A stretch of 47,139 nucleotides of DNA from Promethearchaeota archaeon. GTDB lineage: Archaea; Asgardarchaeota; Lokiarchaeia; Sigyniarchaeales; SOKP01. Position numbers and translations under genes: made by a program. This document shows, piece after piece, positions 6,507 to 34,527 of the stretch; the first letter of the stretch is position 1; the number at the start of each line of letters is the position of its first letter. Below the pieces are notes generated by a model that was given only the letters and a program-made list of their open reading frames with translations, searched no databases and was not told the DNA's origin. The stretch lies in assembly GCA_016839745.1 (NCBI GenBank), contig JAEOTS010000075.1, forward strand, positions 1-47,139, given 5' to 3'.

Positions 6507-7571
6507 CTATCCAAAATCAAGCTCTTCAGTAGGTTCTTGGGTTAATTCCTTATTCAATTCCCTCATCAATTTTTTCTGACCTAAAAAAATTAAGATGATA
6601 AGTATACTAAAATAGAACGTAACAATAATTAATGTAAGGAAATAATATTCTCCCGTATATGAAATGAAATGGGCAGCAACTCCGATAATAAATCCTGTAA
6701 ACAATCGAGATTCTGTAGTACTAGTCCTAAATAGAAGTTTCTGAGTACCCCAATCGATTAATCCAGGTATTGGAAAAACAATTATTATAAATAAAGCTAA
6801 TTCAGGACTAAATTGAGTTCCAAGTATTTGCTGAACTAAATAAGTAAAAAAAACAGACATTATTATTCCAATTATCATACCTGAACATCTAGAGCATAAA
6901 TAAACCTTTGTTCTTCCAAATTGAAAATAGAATGTATGGTCACTCGCAGATACGGGGTGATGAGTTAGAAGTAGGTAGTAGAGATGGCGTTCTTTTAGGG
7001 CTAGTGCTTTATCGTAAATGATTAAAAGAAGGGGTACTATAAAAGTAACGGATAGAAGTGCTTCTAAGAAAAATTTGAAGCCAAAATTAATAAATATAGT
7101 TGTAAATTGTAGTGTAGTTGAAAAAAATAAAATTTGCCAGGAAATTATAAAAAACATTACAGCAAAAGAATCAATAATTATAACGAAAAAAGTAAAAAGA
7201 ACATTTTTAATGTTTTGATATTTTAAAGGTTTATATTTGTAAATTCCCGCAACAAAACCGAATATAGCAATAATAAAACACCAATCTAAATAAACTCTAG
7301 TGTAGAATGCTAGTTGGAATAAAAGTTCACCAAAAAATCCCGCCATAAACGCTTGAATAGGACCTGATAATATTGAGAAAAAAGCAAATACTAATAAACT
7401 AACTCCAAATACTAATGAAAACTCGTTATTTTCAATAAAAGGGGTAGAAATTGAACCAAATGCTTCAGAAATGTAAATATAACTCATAATAATAAAAAGT
7501 ATAACGAGGATATTCACAAAAATGAATCGTAAGCTCGTTTTTGGTTTTGTGTCAAATGAGTTATCACTCAT
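6507..7571 (-). CDS. ECF S-component-like membrane domain fused to DUF2085-like domain
   Basis: SILSGPIQAFMAGFFG S-component-like motif; C-terminal THH...H...LCSRCSG, IDWGTQ, RLFTG typical of DUF2085. Confidence 0.65.
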   Translation of the reverse strand: MSDNSFDTKPKTSLRFIFVNILVILFIIMSYIYISEAFGSISTPFIENNEFSLVFGVSLLVFAFFSILSGPIQAFMAGFFGELLFQLAFYTRVYLDWCFIIAIFGFVAGIYKYKPLKYQNIKNVLFTFFVIIIDSFAVMFFIISWQILFFSTTLQFTTIFINFGFKFFLEALLSVTFIVPLLLIIYDKALALKERHLYYLLLTHHPVSASDHTFYFQFGRTKVYLCSRCSGMIIGIIMSVFFTYLVQQILGTQFSPELALFIIIVFPIPGLIDWGTQKLLFRTSTTESRLFTGFIIGVAAHFISYTGEYYFLTLIIVTFYFSILIILIFLGQKKLMRELNKELTQEPTEELDFG

Positions 7572-7618: not shown

Positions 7619-8281
7619 TTAATTGATAAAAATGAAATCAAGTTCTTCTATTAAGCTCTTCTTCGTTTTTTCGAAGCCCTTGCGAAGAACGGAAATTATA
7701 ATATTTTTACCCGCGGGAACATTTAGAATGCTATCATCTTCCTCCACTATTGCTATACCATCTTCATTATAATCTAATTGTCTCTTTAAAGCTTCGTAAG
7801 CTTTTTCTTTTGTCTTAAAGGCAGCTCTTGATAATTCGTCGTAATTTTTTACCTCTTCTTTTATATTCAAAAATAGGATACATTCTTCTACTTGGGAAAT
7901 AAAAGACTTTTTAGTAATTTCTTTCAATTCTTTATAGCGTTCATGATCTTTTTTACACTGTTTATCAGTTTGGTCATTTTCTAAATAACTAGGAAAGTTT
8001 TTATTAATCTCATCATCAAATCTTTCTTTTGTAATCTCCCCATTTTCAAGTAGCCTTTTAGCAGAATCTAACGCGATTTTAATTTGTTTTAACGTCCCAA
8101 CACGAGCGTTATTATCGCTCCAGAGCTTATAGAAAGCTTTCACTATTGGTTTCACAACAAAATTAAATGCTCCGGTATCTAACTCCGTATCAATTAAATC
8201 TCTACCATAGCCTAGTGACAAGTCAGTTGTTGAAATCATCTTTTCTTCAACGATTTTATAGTTTCTTGGTATATGACTCAT
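7619..8281 (-). CDS. Hypothetical all-helical protein, paralogue of 8375..9031
   Basis: End-to-end colinear similarity to neighbour (LIDTELD, GTLKQI, AFKTKE, LRKGFE). Confidence 0.8.
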   Translation of the reverse strand: MSHIPRNYKIVEEKMISTTDLSLGYGRDLIDTELDTGAFNFVVKPIVKAFYKLWSDNNARVGTLKQIKIALDSAKRLLENGEITKERFDDEINKNFPSYLENDQTDKQCKKDHERYKELKEITKKSFISQVEECILFLNIKEEVKNYDELSRAAFKTKEKAYEALKRQLDYNEDGIAIVEEDDSILNVPAGKNIIISVLRKGFEKTKKSLIEELDFIFIN

Positions 8282-8374: not shown

Positions 8375-9031
8375 TTAATCATAGGTATCGTCTATAGCTT
8401 CTAAAAATTCGTTTTTGGTCTCTTCGAATCCTTTTCTTAGCGATTTGATAATTATCTTCTTACCTACAGGTAAAGATAGAATAGATGGATCCTCTTCAAT
8501 TATTTTGATTCCCCTCTCTGTGAACTCTAATTGCTTCATTAAATTCATAGTGGCTATTTCTTTAGTTTTGAATGCAAACTTAGCAAGATCTGCGTATTCA
8601 GTTATATCTTCTTCAACACTAAGAAAAGTTCTTACTTCTTCGAGATAATTTATAAATGTTTCCTTTGCATTTTCTTTTAGCTTATCGTAGTTTTTATGGT
8701 GTTTACTACATTGATATGTGACTTGATCACCTTTTAGATATTTTGGGAAATATTCTTCTATGATACTGTTAAAACCCTCCTCAGAATTACCATTTAACAA
8801 TAATTTCCTTCCAGCATCAAGTGTCACATCTATTTGCTTCAAGGTTCCCTTCCTTGCGTCATGCATGGCCCAAAAATCGTAAAAAGCTTTAACAACTGGT
8901 CTTACTACGAAGTTTAAAAATCCCGCATCTAGTTCCGTATCTATAAGTTTTCGACCTTTTTTAAGAGATTGTTCCATTTGCTGAATCATCCTTTCTTTAA
9001 TAATATTACAATTTCTATCAACATGCTCCAC
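8375..9031 (-). CDS. Hypothetical all-helical protein, paralogue of 7619..8281
   Basis: Same shared blocks; GTG start preceded by GGGGA. Confidence 0.8.
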   Translation of the reverse strand: MEHVDRNCNIIKERMIQQMEQSLKKGRKLIDTELDAGFLNFVVRPVVKAFYDFWAMHDARKGTLKQIDVTLDAGRKLLLNGNSEEGFNSIIEEYFPKYLKGDQVTYQCSKHHKNYDKLKENAKETFINYLEEVRTFLSVEEDITEYADLAKFAFKTKEIATMNLMKQLEFTERGIKIIEEDPSILSLPVGKKIIIKSLRKGFEETKNEFLEAIDDTYD

Positions 9032-9239: not shown

Positions 9240-12200
9240 ATGCGCTATATTTTCAAAATTCTATTACTTGGGTTAGATGGAGAAGCAATTTCTTTTTACG
9301 CTCTTAGAGCGCTCGGAGAAGAAGGCGAAAACAAAGGAGCTTATTTAGAATGGTATAAGGAAGTAAACGCATTCGATGATATATGCGATTTGGAAATAAA
9401 TGCTATAACCGATATTACTAACACTGAATCTGATTTTGATGAAATGCTAAAGACCGCAGATGGGGTCATATATTTTATAAATCCGCTAAATAAAGAAGAA
9501 ATAGAAATTTTCGATTCTATTTTTCACGATATTAGATCAGTTAAAAGAAACATTCCAATCATTTTAATGTACTACGATCTACAAGGAATCCTCCCCTTAT
9601 CTGTAAACAAACTACTAGAAGACACATGGTTCGAGTATTTTGATATAGAGGCATTTGTTAATCTTCAACCTAGAGAATTTTACCAAGCTTTACAATGTTT
9701 GTGTTTAGCAATGATCAATGGAACAGCCCCTCTTCACCTTGAAAACGCTTGGATGCGATTTCCGATATATATTCAACTCGCAAACATATTCTTTAAAAAA
9801 GCTAATAAAGAAGAAAAACCCGAGCTTTATTTTTTTGCAGCTCAAGCTATCAAAAAAGCTGCATTGATTGCTGATATATTCAATAAAGAGGAATATTACA
9901 TTATTTGCGAACAAGCTGCCTTTCTTTATTCAAAAGTCAATCTGTATTTGGAAGCTTCACAAATTCTGGAAAGTGTAGATCAAAAAAAATCGGATAATTT
10001 CAAAAGATTATACGCTGAATCTATGGTTTTAGAAGGTAATAAATTGTTTAACAAGCGTAAATTTGTTCAAGCCGCAAAACAATATCTAGCCGCAGCTCAA
10101 TGGTCCGCAATAGAAATTAGAGACAGCACCTTAATGGGCGAGTCTTTTAAGTTAGCGATTAACTCTTATATATCTGCTTGCAGAGTTGAAAACGCTTTCA
10201 ATATTCTCAATAATCTCCCTCACGATCAAGCGCTTCTTATCCTACGAGGAGTAACGGCAAAAATTATTGCTGCTGCAGATTTTTTAATTAAAGAAGATAA
10301 TTTTATACTTGCTCGAGATCAATTGTACCGAGCGATCTCCACATATCAACAAGAAGGTTTGTTTGATGATTTGGAACATTTTGCTAACAAACAAATCAAA
10401 GTGTTAGTAAGCCTATTGAAAATCTATATTAAAGAGGAGCAACAGATTCGTGCCAAACAAACTTACGACGAGATTAAAAATATCTGGGAAACATACAACA
10501 TTAAAATGCCAAATCTTGATTCTCATCTTGAAAGCTTAATTACACAATTCATAAATAAACTCGATTTTGGTAATGCCGACATACTAATCAATAGTCTAAA
10601 TACCTTAAAATTAAAGAAAAAATTAACTGATCTGCGTTATAAAGTTGAGAAAGAAAATAAAGAATTAATTAAAAAACAAATCGAAGAAAACATCGAAAAA
10701 GGTGTAGATGTTCTAAATAGTTTCATAGAATATGAGTTAAACATCTTTAAAGAAATTAATACACAGATTATTAAAGAAGCTAATCAATTTATTGAGGAAA
10801 ATAATTATTCTAAAGCCGCTAAGCATGTGAAAGTTCAGGTAGAATTTTTGAAAAGAGTTGGAAGGGAAGAAATCCATAATGAAATGATAAAGAAAGCTTT
10901 AGATATCCTATTAATCGGAAAGCAATTCGACCAGTTTTTTAAAATGTATTATGATTTATCAAAGAAAGCAAAAAAAATTTATCTTAGGAATAAGCTACGA
11001 ATTATTTTAGAAAAACTGAATGATATTATTAAAGAACGCGATTTTAAAATAAGTGAAGATGTACTAATAAATTTCATTTCTGTTTTTAGAGAACAATTAC
11101 TTTATGAACAATCTAAGGAAGTTAGCGAGAAATTTATTGATTCGGTTAAATCTGAGGCAATGAAAATAGTTAATAATAACAATACCAAAAACGCTATAGA
11201 TGCCGCTTTAAAGTTGATTAATAAAGCAGAAGAAATTTCATTAATGTATTTAGATAATCGCAAATTAAACTTCGATAAGATATATGAGAGAATAACAGAA
11301 ATTTATACCGAACTTGATGAGCTATCTTTAGCTCATGCTATCTCCGATATGATTGAGAGTAAATTTCTTAAGACAGAACTTAACAGAAAAATAGAAAAAC
11401 TCGATGCTGTAAAAAGCGCTACTGAGGCTAAGAAGGCTGAGGAAACTTCCAGAGGAGAAATTTCGAAAGAAAGGCTTTCGATTATTCAGAATAAAGCAAG
11501 AGAAGCTCGCCAAGATAGAGATAGATTATTAAAACTAAGAAAAGCACTGAGAGCTTATCTTAATGATGCTCTAATGTATTTGGATAAAAAAGATTATGAT
11601 AAGGCTATTAACAGTTATAAAGAAAGCGTAACTCGTTTGATTGACAGAAATAACCTTGACTTAGCGGGAGTGTCCTTAGCAATAATCCTACTAATGCATA
11701 TAAAACAAAACCAGATTGTAAAGTTTCACAAAATTCTTATCTTTATAAAACTTAAATTAGGAAGCCTAGAAAAATCATTATCAGAAACTTTTTCGGTGTC
11801 TTTGGTTGAATACATTTTAGATATTGAAAAATTGGGTGATCCTATTAGGCTTCAAGAATCAATTGATTTTATGGAAATTTTACCACTGTTTGACGAAGAA
11901 GTCAATCTTCTTTATGAAACCTTAGGTAAATCACTTAAAACTCTCGAACCTGAAGATATGGAAAGGGAAATTGCTGAAACTGAATATAAAAAAGAAAATA
12001 TTATTGAACTTGCGAAAAATATCCCGAAAGAAAAGAAGGAAATTGCTAAAAGAAAATTGATGAAAAATCAATACTGGAAATTAGCTTTAGAAGATTTATC
12101 TAACCAAAAAAATGAGGTAGCTGCTAGCGACTATAAAGATACAATTCCTAGGTTGATAGAAAAAAAATTCTATAGGCAAGCAGCATTAGGCTTGATATTA

Positions 12201-12995
12201 AGCATATTCATAATAATCAAAATTAAAGATGTTTTTACAGCTAAAACACAATTAAATGCTATACTAACAAAATATAAAGAATTTAAAGCTGATTTTGAAG
12301 ATTTACCCGAGATAAAAATCTTAAAAGAATTGCTTCTCGCTTTAGAAAGTGATAATTTGCTAATAATTAATATATGTGTTGACCTTCTAATCGAAAAATT
12401 AGTTCTTTATGATCCTGAAATTTCATTGTTAGAATCTATTAGATCAGAAGAACAAAAAAGCGACTTAATAGAGGATAAATTGTCAAGAGAAGAAGTAGGG
12501 GAAATGCAAAAGTTTGCTATCTTAGTAGACCAAAAATATAGCAAACTACTACAAAAAATGGGGGATGTTAGGAGAGAAAGACCAGAATTCCTAAAACAAC
12601 GAAACCCCATGAAAAAAAGGTATTATAAAGATGTAATTCCCTTACTTGAAATAAAGTCTTATAAGGAAGTTGGGCTAGAATACTTAAGGTTAGCTCAAAG
12701 TATATCTAAGAGAAGAGACTTTAGGACTAGTTCGTTAATGATTCTATTACACGGATTAGCCCTCATAAAAGCCAATGAGTCACCAATGAAAATAAGATCA
12801 GATATTAGAAAGTTCCTTGATTTGTTGGGTCTTAATAAGAAACTTGTGGAAGATACCTACTACATCCTTTGTGTAGATTTTATCCTTGATGTAATTTCAT
12901 ATAAAATAAACAAATATCTTACGAAAATATACGATTTATTAGAGATTTTGCCTTTATTTGAAGAAGAGAAAGAGTTAATTGAAATTACACTATAA
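9240..12995 (+). CDS. Large protein: degenerate small-GTPase-like N-domain, TPR/SNAP-like alpha-solenoid, three C-terminal repeats
   Basis: FKILLLGLDG, ADGVIYF, NIPIIL strands without GKT/DxxG/NKxD; helical repeats such as GNKLFNKRKFVQAAKQYLAAAQW. Confidence 0.65.
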   Translation: MRYIFKILLLGLDGEAISFYALRALGEEGENKGAYLEWYKEVNAFDDICDLEINAITDITNTESDFDEMLKTADGVIYFINPLNKEEIEIFDSIFHDIRSVKRNIPIILMYYDLQGILPLSVNKLLEDTWFEYFDIEAFVNLQPREFYQALQCLCLAMINGTAPLHLENAWMRFPIYIQLANIFFKKANKEEKPELYFFAAQAIKKAALIADIFNKEEYYIICEQAAFLYSKVNLYLEASQILESVDQKKSDNFKRLYAESMVLEGNKLFNKRKFVQAAKQYLAAAQWSAIEIRDSTLMGESFKLAINSYISACRVENAFNILNNLPHDQALLILRGVTAKIIAAADFLIKEDNFILARDQLYRAISTYQQEGLFDDLEHFANKQIKVLVSLLKIYIKEEQQIRAKQTYDEIKNIWETYNIKMPNLDSHLESLITQFINKLDFGNADILINSLNTLKLKKKLTDLRYKVEKENKELIKKQIEENIEKGVDVLNSFIEYELNIFKEINTQIIKEANQFIEENNYSKAAKHVKVQVEFLKRVGREEIHNEMIKKALDILLIGKQFDQFFKMYYDLSKKAKKIYLRNKLRIILEKLNDIIKERDFKISEDVLINFISVFREQLLYEQSKEVSEKFIDSVKSEAMKIVNNNNTKNAIDAALKLINKAEEISLMYLDNRKLNFDKIYERITEIYTELDELSLAHAISDMIESKFLKTELNRKIEKLDAVKSATEAKKAEETSRGEISKERLSIIQNKAREARQDRDRLLKLRKALRAYLNDALMYLDKKDYDKAINSYKESVTRLIDRNNLDLAGVSLAIILLMHIKQNQIVKFHKILIFIKLKLGSLEKSLSETFSVSLVEYILDIEKLGDPIRLQESIDFMEILPLFDEEVNLLYETLGKSLKTLEPEDMEREIAETEYKKENIIELAKNIPKEKKEIAKRKLMKNQYWKLALEDLSNQKNEVAASDYKDTIPRLIEKKFYRQAALGLILSIFIIIKIKDVFTAKTQLNAILTKYKEFKADFEDLPEIKILKELLLALESDNLLIINICVDLLIEKLVLYDPEISLLESIRSEEQKSDLIEDKLSREEVGEMQKFAILVDQKYSKLLQKMGDVRRERPEFLKQRNPMKKRYYKDVIPLLEIKSYKEVGLEYLRLAQSISKRRDFRTSSLMILLHGLALIKANESPMKIRSDIRKFLDLLGLNKKLVEDTYYILCVDFILDVISYKINKYLTKIYDLLEILPLFEEEKELIEITL

Positions 12996-14138: not shown

Positions 14139-15389
14139 ATGTCGTCCGATATCGCAAATATTATAAGTATTTTTTCAAAATTTCTCGATCCAAAAGTAAC
14201 CAAAGCAGATAAATTTAAAACCGTTGAGGAAATAAAAAAATTACCCGTTCACTCTTATAAATTTATTTCTAAAAACGATGCTAAAATTTTAAAAGACCTT
14301 CTAAAAATATCCAAAATTGAAGAAATTTCCAAATTGAATAGGGAAAATCCATTCAAAAATTTAAAAATTTTCGGAGAAACAAAGGATCCTCTCGAAGTTA
14401 CCGAATTACAAGAAGAATATGATAGAAAAGTCACTGCCCTTAAAGCAGAGAATCCAGAACTTGAAAAATCCGTAAAGAAAGCAATTTTTATTAGCTCAAT
14501 CATTACCAATATGGTAGACGAGGGAGAGATTCTCCAAAAATCAGCTCAAAAAGTAATCGTAATAGGATTAGATAATGCGGGAAAAACAGCAATTTTGAGC
14601 AAGTTTGGAGGACGGTTAGGTATTAACGATTTAGCAAATTTGACGCCAACTAAGGGGGTAGATCGTCGGCATATCGAAACGGAAAGCTCTGATATAGATC
14701 TTTATATATGGGATTTTGGTGGACAAGCTCAGTATCGAAGCAAATATTTTGATAAACCAGAACAATATTTTCTACAAACTGATTTATTGATCTATGTAAT
14801 TGATGTTCAAGATCCTGAGAGATACGCCGAATCATTTGAGTATTTTGAACAAATACTAGAAATCTTATCGACATTAGAAGAGGAACCATTTGTATTAATA
14901 TATATACATAAATGCGATCCCGATTTAAAACGCGACCCCGAAACCTTATTGAATATCGAACTCCTAAAAGATAACCTCAATCAATTATTAACTACATATG
15001 ACTGCGATTACGAGGCTTATTTGACTTCAATTTTTTCCCTAATAACTAACGAACCTGAGTTTTCGAAATACATTAAGGAAGTTATGAGATCTACTGATTC
15101 TCTAACAAGCCCAACTTTGAGAAAAGTTGAGGGTTTAGGAAAGACTTTAGAGGAAACCATGAATGCTGTTATACGGTTATCAGAAAGCCTTTCTAAACAA
15201 TTATCTGAACTAGATAATAGATTGCGGGCAATTGAAAGTGGTGCATTTCAGATGGCTCAAAGTGGAGTACCAATAAGCTTAGCTCCACCAAACGATCCGT
15301 CAACACCGGGAGGACCTGGTGATTCTAGGACAACTGTTCTAAATGAGTTAAAACAACTATTCGAAAAGAAGCGAAAGCTGAACTTATAA
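14139..15389 (+). CDS. Arf/Rag-like small GTPase with N-terminal helical domain and C-terminal coiled coil/Pro-rich tail
   Basis: G1 GLDNAGKT, G2 PTKG, G3 WDFGGQ, G4 HKCD, G5 TSI. Confidence 0.9.
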   Translation: MSSDIANIISIFSKFLDPKVTKADKFKTVEEIKKLPVHSYKFISKNDAKILKDLLKISKIEEISKLNRENPFKNLKIFGETKDPLEVTELQEEYDRKVTALKAENPELEKSVKKAIFISSIITNMVDEGEILQKSAQKVIVIGLDNAGKTAILSKFGGRLGINDLANLTPTKGVDRRHIETESSDIDLYIWDFGGQAQYRSKYFDKPEQYFLQTDLLIYVIDVQDPERYAESFEYFEQILEILSTLEEEPFVLIYIHKCDPDLKRDPETLLNIELLKDNLNQLLTTYDCDYEAYLTSIFSLITNEPEFSKYIKEVMRSTDSLTSPTLRKVEGLGKTLEETMNAVIRLSESLSKQLSELDNRLRAIESGAFQMAQSGVPISLAPPNDPSTPGGPGDSRTTVLNELKQLFEKKRKLNL

Positions 15390-31228: not shown

Positions 31229-31801
31229 ATGAAAAATAATAACGACCAGAACCCCAAAGACGAGACAGAACTCGATGCAATGTTTAAAATCTGTTTTTTT
31301 GGGGATGGAGGCGTTGGAAAAACAACACTGATTGGAAGATACATCACGGGAATATTTAAATCTAATCAATCACTCACTATCGGAGTCGATTTCCATGTTA
31401 AAAAGATAAAAGTTAACGATAAATTAGTTTCACTACAAATTTGGGATTTTGCTGGAGAAAGTCGCTTCAGATTTCTTTTACCAAGTTATGTTATTGGTGC
31501 GTCTGGAGGAATTTTTATGTATGACATGACGCGATTTTCTAGCTTGAAAAATTTCCCTGAGTGGATCGAAATTTTCAAAAAAGGCTTTGTTGGGGCTCCA
31601 GATAAACAACTACCAGTAATAATGGTTGGAAGCAAGCTAGATTTAAGTTATAAGCGAGCAGTTTCAAGCAAAGAAGCATTCGATCTTGCAAAAGAACAAA
31701 ATCTATATGGGTATATCGAATGTTCATCTAAGGATGGGAGAAATATAGAAGATGTATTCACTGAAATTGCAAAATTAATGTTAACTAGAGCTGGACTTTA
31801 A
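31229..31801 (+). CDS. Rab-like small GTPase
   Basis: GDGGVGKT, TIGVDF, LQIWDFAGE, RFR, SKLD, ECSSK. Confidence 0.93.
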   Translation: MKNNNDQNPKDETELDAMFKICFFGDGGVGKTTLIGRYITGIFKSNQSLTIGVDFHVKKIKVNDKLVSLQIWDFAGESRFRFLLPSYVIGASGGIFMYDMTRFSSLKNFPEWIEIFKKGFVGAPDKQLPVIMVGSKLDLSYKRAVSSKEAFDLAKEQNLYGYIECSSKDGRNIEDVFTEIAKLMLTRAGL

Positions 31802-34161: not shown

Positions 34162-34527
34162 ATGGAGTCAGTCGAAACCTTAGATGACCTTTTGAAAAAA
34201 TTACTCGGAGCAATTCCAGAAGTGAAATCTGCTGCTATCGTGTCTGCTGAAGGACTTCCTATTGCATCTGCGCTTCCGCAAGGTGTCGATGAAACTAGAA
34301 TCGCAGCAATGACTGCCGCTTTACTCTCCTTATCCGAAAGGGCAATTATAGAGATGGGAAAAGGGGATTTCGACCAGTTATATATAAAGGGGAGCGAAGG
34401 CTACCTTTTAGTTATGCAAGCTGGCCCTAACGCGGTTTTGACAGTATCTACTACGAAAGATGTTAGACTCGGGTTAATTCTGTTAGATTGCAGAAGAACA
34501 TGCGAAAAAATAGCGCAATTGATCTAA
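34162..34527 (+). CDS. Roadblock/LC7 (MglB-like) protein
   Basis: AAIVSAEGLPIAS, RIAAMTAALL, IKG..GY, LGLI; AAGGAG upstream. Confidence 0.93.
   Translation: MESVETLDDLLKKLLGAIPEVKSAAIVSAEGLPIASALPQGVDETRIAAMTAALLSLSERAIIEMGKGDFDQLYIKGSEGYLLVMQAGPNAVLTVSTTKDVRLGLILLDCRRTCEKIAQLI

Follow-up and report, generated by a model that had tools for sequence, protein, structure and literature searches.

A putative scaffold family of Lokiarchaeal genomes with a predicted GTPase-like head, devoid of the G motifs, on a helical-repeat body

The DNA analysed here (the window) is a stretch of 47,139 nucleotides from a Promethearchaeota archaeon of the order Sigyniarchaeales (assembly GCA_016839745.1, contig JAEOTS010000075.1, positions 1 to 47,139, forward strand). 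It has a G+C content of about 30% and carries archaeal genes for TFIIB and the ribosomal proteins eS24, eS6 and eL8/L7Ae, together with many Asgard-type genes. In this study, we analyzed one open reading frame (ORF) of the window, at 9240..12995, whose product combines a predicted GTPase-like head, devoid of the motifs that bind nucleotide (G motifs), with a very long helical-repeat body, and which probably acts as a scaffold. The parts of this gene, with amino acid (aa) numbers of the product, are as follows.

9240..12995, + strand: whole gene, 1251 codons plus stop, from the ORF call, its translation and full-length orthologues
9240..9734, + strand: putative pseudo-GTPase domain (psGD, the head), aa 1-165, net charge -17
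9735..9812, + strand: junction helix ENAWMRFPIYIQLANIFF, aa 166-191, first helix of the solenoid model
9735..10604, + strand: first TPR-like array, aa 166-455, weakly SNAP-like
10605..10796, + strand: long helix 1, aa 456-519, 41% charged (helix 297-360 of the model)
10797..11360, + strand: middle helical-repeat region, aa 520-707, from the body model
11361..11546, + strand: long basic helix 2, aa 708-769, net charge +8, continuing into module 1
11472..11939, + strand: C-terminal module 1, aa 745-900, ending in LPLFDEE, from hhalign comparison between the modules (99.4-99.8% probability)
12012..12449, + strand: C-terminal module 2, aa 925-1070, ending in LVLYDPE, missing in variants of about 1,085 aa
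12537..12992, + strand: C-terminal module 3, aa 1100-1251, ending in LPLFEEE, net charge +7

The frame of 1251 aa contains no internal stop, and it is a real gene and more than a chance ORF because about 150 genomes carry intact full-length orthologues with 24-82% identity to its product.

The initial annotation, made from the letters of the window alone, had described the first ~160 residues as a domain with the strand pattern of a G domain and pointed to the strings YIFKILLLGLDG (aa 3-14), CDLEI (aa 49-53), ADGVIYF (aa 73-79) and NIPIILM (aa 104-110). In an AlphaFold2 model of aa 1-190, built from a 24-sequence alignment, these strings form strands β1, β3, β4 and β5, respectively, and the topology β1-α1-β2-β3-α2-β4-α3-β5-α4-β6-α5 is the order of Ras-like G domains, with a six-stranded sheet, an antiparallel β2 and five helices. 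The model has a predicted local distance difference test score (pLDDT) of 80.1 and a predicted template modelling score (pTM) of 0.81, and the fold of the head is therefore predicted with good confidence. When the model was compared with the PDB by Foldseek, at least 500 matches were obtained at E≤0.001; those listed were all Ras, Rab, Ral and Rap GTPases (E about 3e-8 to 2e-7), and the 50 structural matches listed in a further comparison were likewise all canonical GTPases, with CENP-M, AAGAB, p190RhoGAP and LIC not among these 50. Fold and strand order are common to the head and to small GTPases such as Rab23, DiRas1, Rab3C, Sec4, Ypt32 and the Rab/Arf/Rag-like proteins of Asgard archaea, whereas all five nucleotide-binding motifs of the latter are absent from the head.

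The P-loop position is occupied by GLDGEAIS, in which the Lys and the second Gly are gone, the end of β3 reads A-I-T-D where DxxG is expected, Y-D-L-Q follows β5 in place of NKxD, and F-V-N follows β6 in place of SAK. The sole literal DxxG of the head (D113-L-Q-G116) lies after β5, at the G4 position, and not at the end of β3. The loss of GKT, DxxG and NKxD, which had also been proposed at the outset, was thus confirmed at each expected position, and it extends to the whole family. The pattern GxxxxGK[ST] was found in the first 200 residues of none of 142 members (0/142), the P-loop octet varies freely among relatives and in many of them is shorter by one residue, and the five stray [NT]KxD strings of relatives all lie at positions other than G4.

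Sequence similarity of the head to GTPases falls below what Pfam, NCBIfam and PDB-sequence searches detect, yet it is present. No Pfam Ras, Arf or Roc match was obtained for the head at E≤0.1, the head is absent from the 67 Pfam Arf-model matches of its own genome, the protein has no NCBIfam match, and no PDB sequence gave a meaningful match to a profile of the head, of the body or of the first array. When the family profile was aligned by hhalign with 75 small GTPases of the same genome, however, a match of 92% probability (P 5.5e-7) was obtained over α2-β4-α3-β5, in which Y-D-L-Q of the head is set on N-K-x-D of the GTPases. In addition, GTPases make up 8 of the 30 best sub-threshold hmmsearch hits among the genome's 3,891 ORFs (hypergeometric p=5e-8). 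These comparisons indicate that the head is remotely homologous to GTPases. The head is best regarded as a GTPase-derived domain that has probably lost nucleotide binding, since the Lys and the Ser/Thr of the P-loop are missing and the domain carries a net charge of -17.

A helical-repeat body behind the head, as first described, was recovered in a second AlphaFold2 model (aa 160-1251, 47 sequences), in which residues ~170-1247 (~1,080 residues) are predicted to be all-helical. The mean pLDDT of this model is 85.5 and its pTM is 0.36; its local structure is trustworthy and its overall shape is not. Three very long helices (aa 456-519, 708-769 and 1083-1128) are 41-48% charged. The model has the stacked helix-turn-helix superhelix of the TPR superfamily and matches TPR proteins, and Foldseek retrieved long TPR scaffolds, namely Ski3, Ctr9, IFT-A subunits and Syf1-type HAT proteins, with TM-scores ≤0.15, at which helical repeats match through shape alone. 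The proteins behind the top matches (Ski3/TTC37, Ctr9, IFT139/IFT-A and LGN) form TPR-like superhelices of great length and serve to organise multi-protein complexes; they share with the body the repeat type alone, and none has a G-domain head. At the sequence level, the sole Pfam TPR match in the protein is TPR_1 at aa 771-797 (17.8 bits against a cut-off of 27.8), and TPR_2 was matched in 18 of 37 relatives (best E 1.7e-5).

The body had originally been called SNAP/TPR-like. The TPR-like superhelix is borne out by the model, and the first array is weakly SNAP-like. The structural match of the first array to Sec17 and α- and γ-SNAP spans the whole length of SNAP, with root-mean-square deviations of 8.7-14 Å and scores equal to those of generic TPR proteins. 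No match to the SNAP model (PF14938) was listed for the protein and 36 relatives at E≤1; when this model was searched against the whole genome at E≤10, other TPR proteins were matched and the scaffold was not. A profile of aa 160-440 found no SNAP among PDB sequences, and neither SNAP nor Trs85 was among the 50 matches listed in a representative-wide search with the body.

The best conserved parts of the protein are the head, the junction helix and the first array. The most conserved 30-residue window, aa 151-180 (ENAWMRFP...), takes in part of the junction helix, and W171, P175 and N182 are invariant or nearly so among 37 members with identities down to 24%. The C-terminal part is built from a module of about 150 residues in three tandem copies (aa 745-900, 925-1070 and 1100-1251), which match each other in hhalign with probabilities of 98-99.8%. 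Each is preceded by a basic lead-in, and P1238 and the final Glu E1243 of the third end motif as well as the final Glu E887 of the first are invariant across the family. Profile-profile comparison revealed no fourth copy upstream of aa 745 and no internal repeat relation of the middle region (aa 520-707) to the modules. The number of modules varies between two and three, because many genomes of one genus (g12, genomes G179-G228) have a form of ~1,085 residues without module 2 (e.g., G227:C4:6249-9524), in which matches cover aa 1-~910 and 1061-1248 inside single frames of ~1,090 aa. The acidic head (9240-9734, net charge -17) stands in contrast to the basic regions at 11361-11546 (+8), in the lead-in of module 3 (+6) and in module 3 itself (+7), the last two together forming a basic stretch at 12486-12992. 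An electrostatic head-to-tail contact, within one molecule or between molecules, is possible.

A word-indexed search of 5.8 billion proteins retrieved 189 relatives, nearly all of them unnamed, 1,235-1,256 residues long and from metagenome-assembled genomes of Lokiarchaeota/Promethearchaeota. An exhaustive search of 1.84 billion representatives with the N-domain profile returned 48 clusters, almost all of this family or fragments of it, and no canonical GTPase at E≤0.001. A feature search with the homologue P0006 returned the family's own clusters and, as a weak lead, a cluster of 646-aa Arf-type GTPases (score 0.77). Among 400 genomes of the phylum, the scaffold was found in 144 of the 153 genomes of families f1-f4 of the window's order (125/134, 1/1, 14/14 and 4/4 in f1, f2, f3 and f4, respectively; two closed genomes, 4.4 and 6.0 Mb in size, belong to f3). 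In contrast, it was found in 0/7 genomes of the sister families f5-f7, the family profile included, and outside f1-f7 there was one marginal match. The family is accordingly restricted to a single order, in which it is nearly universal and present in one copy. The scaffold is single-copy in its own genome, where no paralogue combining a GTPase with a solenoid was found; the solenoid profile matches nothing else there, and the long GTPase ORFs of this genome resemble, by sequence, FeoB, IF2 and a Rab-like protein with a Pro-rich tail. The family is undescribed: no description of it was found in the literature searched.

The genes discussed around the scaffold are listed below.

7619..8281 and 8375..9031, - strand: two 220-aa orphan paralogues, divergent from the scaffold gene and 50% identical to each other
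14139..15389, + strand: active Arf/Rag-like GTPase, 416 aa, with Pfam Gtr1_RagA and Arf matches and an intact GLDNAGKT

In 30 loci of species genomes, a region of about 20 kb is collinear with the window, and in these a gap of 1.1 kb, occupied by a TFIIB gene of the opposite orientation, separates the scaffold gene from the Arf/Rag-like GTPase gene. The adjacency of TFIIB and GTPase genes carries no specific signal, because the whole ~20 kb is collinear in these 30 loci. Seven distant orthologous loci (24-29% identity) were compared. Neither a GTPase gene nor TFIIB lies beside the scaffold gene in any of them (0/7), and no common arrangement is seen downstream of it. The upstream neighbourhood, on the other hand, is conserved. 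A divergent orphan gene of ~142 aa followed by a gene for an ArsR-type double winged-helix protein is found in 7/7 distant loci, a homologue of the 218/220-aa orphans near the scaffold gene in 6/7, and a DUF2085 membrane protein in 4/7, two of the others being short contigs that end earlier.

In the family of the window, this place contains neither the 142-aa gene nor the regulator but a second copy of the 220-aa gene. The 142-aa family has the same order limit as the scaffold (117/134 in f1, 19/19 in f2-f4, 0/7 in f5-f7), with only weaker, unlinked paralogues in f1, and none was found in the window's own genome, the assembly of which is 89% complete. The 142-aa family was considered as an obligate partner of the scaffold, which is unsupported for this genome, as no member was found in the 89%-complete assembly. 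Its members carry the motif TG.C.....C.WEG.F, and their genes lie head-to-head with distant scaffold orthologues, with the ArsR-type double winged helix-turn-helix gene (L031-L037, e.g., L035:7352-7777 and 6635-7324; G135:C1:4168864-4169274). The 220-aa family is class-wide and is also found in f5-f7, where the scaffold is not. Its residues D102, H112 and Y146 are invariant and C108 nearly so; two copies are found in the window's genus and one other genus, and one in most other genera of the same family. A DUF2085 gene adjoins the 220-aa family in the window, in the collinear loci and in four distant loci; in the window, it is a membrane protein gene at 6507-7571 (- strand), the product of which has a half resembling the S-component of an energy-coupling factor (ECF)-type riboflavin transporter in addition to DUF2085. 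Searches of Pfam, NCBIfam and PDB sequences gave no match for the 220-aa and 142-aa neighbours, and these conserved upstream neighbours are candidate regulators or partners, nothing more.

Taken as a whole, we consider it fairly probable that the gene product is a cytosolic, non-enzymatic scaffold with a pseudoGTPase head of class-i type. The head would be a small-GTPase domain that has passed beyond nucleotide binding and now has a constant role in protein binding or structure. The invariant ENAWMRFP junction probably fastens it to the first TPR helices, because head, junction helix and first array are the best conserved parts. The body would supply several helical-repeat binding surfaces, namely the TPR array of ~290 residues and two or three modules of ~150 residues, with long charged helices separating the repeated modules, so that a single molecule could bind a number of different partners or the same partner more than once. 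In AAGAB, CENP-M and dynein LIC, a G domain free of nucleotide acts as a binding module (PMC12490416), and class-i pseudoGTPases, including pG1/pG2 of p190RhoGAP, keep a Ras-like fold without the G motifs as a constitutive binding module (PMC12490416, PMC5593906). The head resembles this class in Ras-like fold, loss of G motifs and descent from GTPases, although its nonbinding is inferred. No sequence relation between class-i pseudoGTPases and the scaffold was found, and the scaffold is archaeal with its head fused to ~1,080 TPR-like residues. The nucleotide-free pseudo-GTPase scaffold of the initial annotation accordingly stands as the best reading as far as fold and motif loss are concerned, but its nucleotide-free state stays a likely consequence of the missing residues. 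Several points weigh against this reading. Unusual ligands of the head are possible on sequence grounds, and the global arrangement of the body is uncertain at a pTM of 0.36; moreover, head and body were folded separately, so that the docking of one on the other is suggested by conservation only.

The architecture had also been said to recall eukaryotic tether or coat components, and the likeness to Trs85 of TRAPPIII is clear in the order of parts. In Trs85, a GTPase-like fold without the capacity for nucleotide binding precedes an alpha-solenoid, and the latter attaches to the TRAPP core (PMC8204860); Trs85/TRAPPC8 is the closest eukaryotic architecture to that of the scaffold. Large insertions, however, interrupt the G-like fold of Trs85, whose solenoid comprises no more than five helix pairs, unlike the scaffold, and no amphipathic membrane helix was identified in the scaffold, again unlike Trs85/TRAPPC8. 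PF12739 (Trs85) had no match in the genome at E≤10, in a search without a positive control, as the control genomes have no member. No TRAPP family was among the 25 families listed by Pfam hmmscan at E≤1 for the protein and 36 relatives, and no Bet3-type TRAPP core protein (PF04051) was found in the 89%-complete genome, likewise without a positive control. The Trs85 likeness is one of design only. A true kinship or functional equivalence of the protein with eukaryotic trafficking factors is improbable; it would then be a tether subunit of the Trs85/TRAPPC8 type or an adaptor of the SNAP type and would work at membranes jointly with Asgard GTPases or SNARE-like proteins. The same low credence applies to an archaeal counterpart of a membrane-trafficking scaffold, in which a Trs85/TRAPPC8-like pseudoGTPase-solenoid head and SNAP-like modules would organise some of the ~70 small GTPases, or other proteins of trafficking type, of Lokiarchaeales on membranes. 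An assembly chaperone or co-chaperone-like factor, in which a dead G domain (as in AAGAB) and TPR clamps would grip subunits of another complex before their assembly, or its acidic C-terminal peptides, seems unlikely, if slightly less so.

TPR proteins can be GTPase effectors, and the initial annotation suggested that the scaffold may partner the GTPase at 14139-15389. The scaffold would on this reading be an effector, a platform for GTPase-activating or guanine nucleotide exchange proteins (GAP/GEF) or a heterodimer partner of this Arf/Rag-like GTPase, and the two genes are 1.1 kb apart, with TFIIB between, in all 30 collinear loci. These loci are collinear over 20 kb, however, which makes the adjacency uninformative, the TFIIB gene between the two is oppositely oriented, 0/7 distant loci have an adjoining GTPase, and small GTPases number 67 (Pfam Arf) or 75 (iterated in-genome profile) in 3.5 Mb, about one per 50 kb. 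Synteny in the 30 collinear and seven distant loci thus gave no specific linkage between scaffold and GTPase, the suggestion was not upheld, and we find such a partnership hardly credible. A head that still binds nucleotide or another anionic ligand non-canonically, which would make the protein a switch, is to be regarded as very improbable. YDxxG after β5 and N141 after β6 are conserved in the family, and some pseudoGTPases bind nucleotide without hydrolysis according to the published classification (PMC12490416), but the Lys and Ser/Thr of the P-loop are missing in all members, many of which also have the one-residue loop deletion, and the loop is acidic (D13, E15) within a domain of net charge -17.

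What has been characterised of pseudoGTPase scaffolds to date comes mainly from eukaryotes. If the scaffold reading holds, a G domain would have been turned, within archaea, into a probably nucleotide-free structural module fused to a modular solenoid, which is the same design as in TRAPPIII Trs85, AAGAB and CENP-M/CENP-I. To our knowledge, Asgard archaea have dozens of small GTPases, almost none of them with a known partner, and the partners of the scaffold, once found, would be a concrete entry point into Lokiarchaeal cell organisation. Were the trafficking-scaffold reading true instead, a 'dead GTPase plus solenoid' tether would have existed, or arisen independently, in the closest cultured relatives of eukaryotes.

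Some further observations concern the window and its collinear relatives. The best PDB match of the GTPase at 14139..15389 is 8yl2 (LokiRagO, a tetrameric Lokiarchaeal RagA-like protein; E 2.7e-25), and this GTPase has an N-terminal extension of ~130 aa and a coiled-coil-like C-terminal tail. A second small GTPase gene of the window lies at 31229-31801, and the sole Roadblock/LC7 gene in the window lies at 34162-34527 (+ strand; E 5e-21), 21 kb from the scaffold gene and thus too far away to count as its neighbour. Contig DATKTW010000124.1 (L023), labelled 'Candidatus Nanopelagicaceae bacterium', is fully collinear with the region and its TFIIB is 96% identical, so that this label is probably a binning or labelling error. 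Several more collinear contigs are labelled Hod-, Hermod-, Odin-, Thor- or Heimdallarchaeota.

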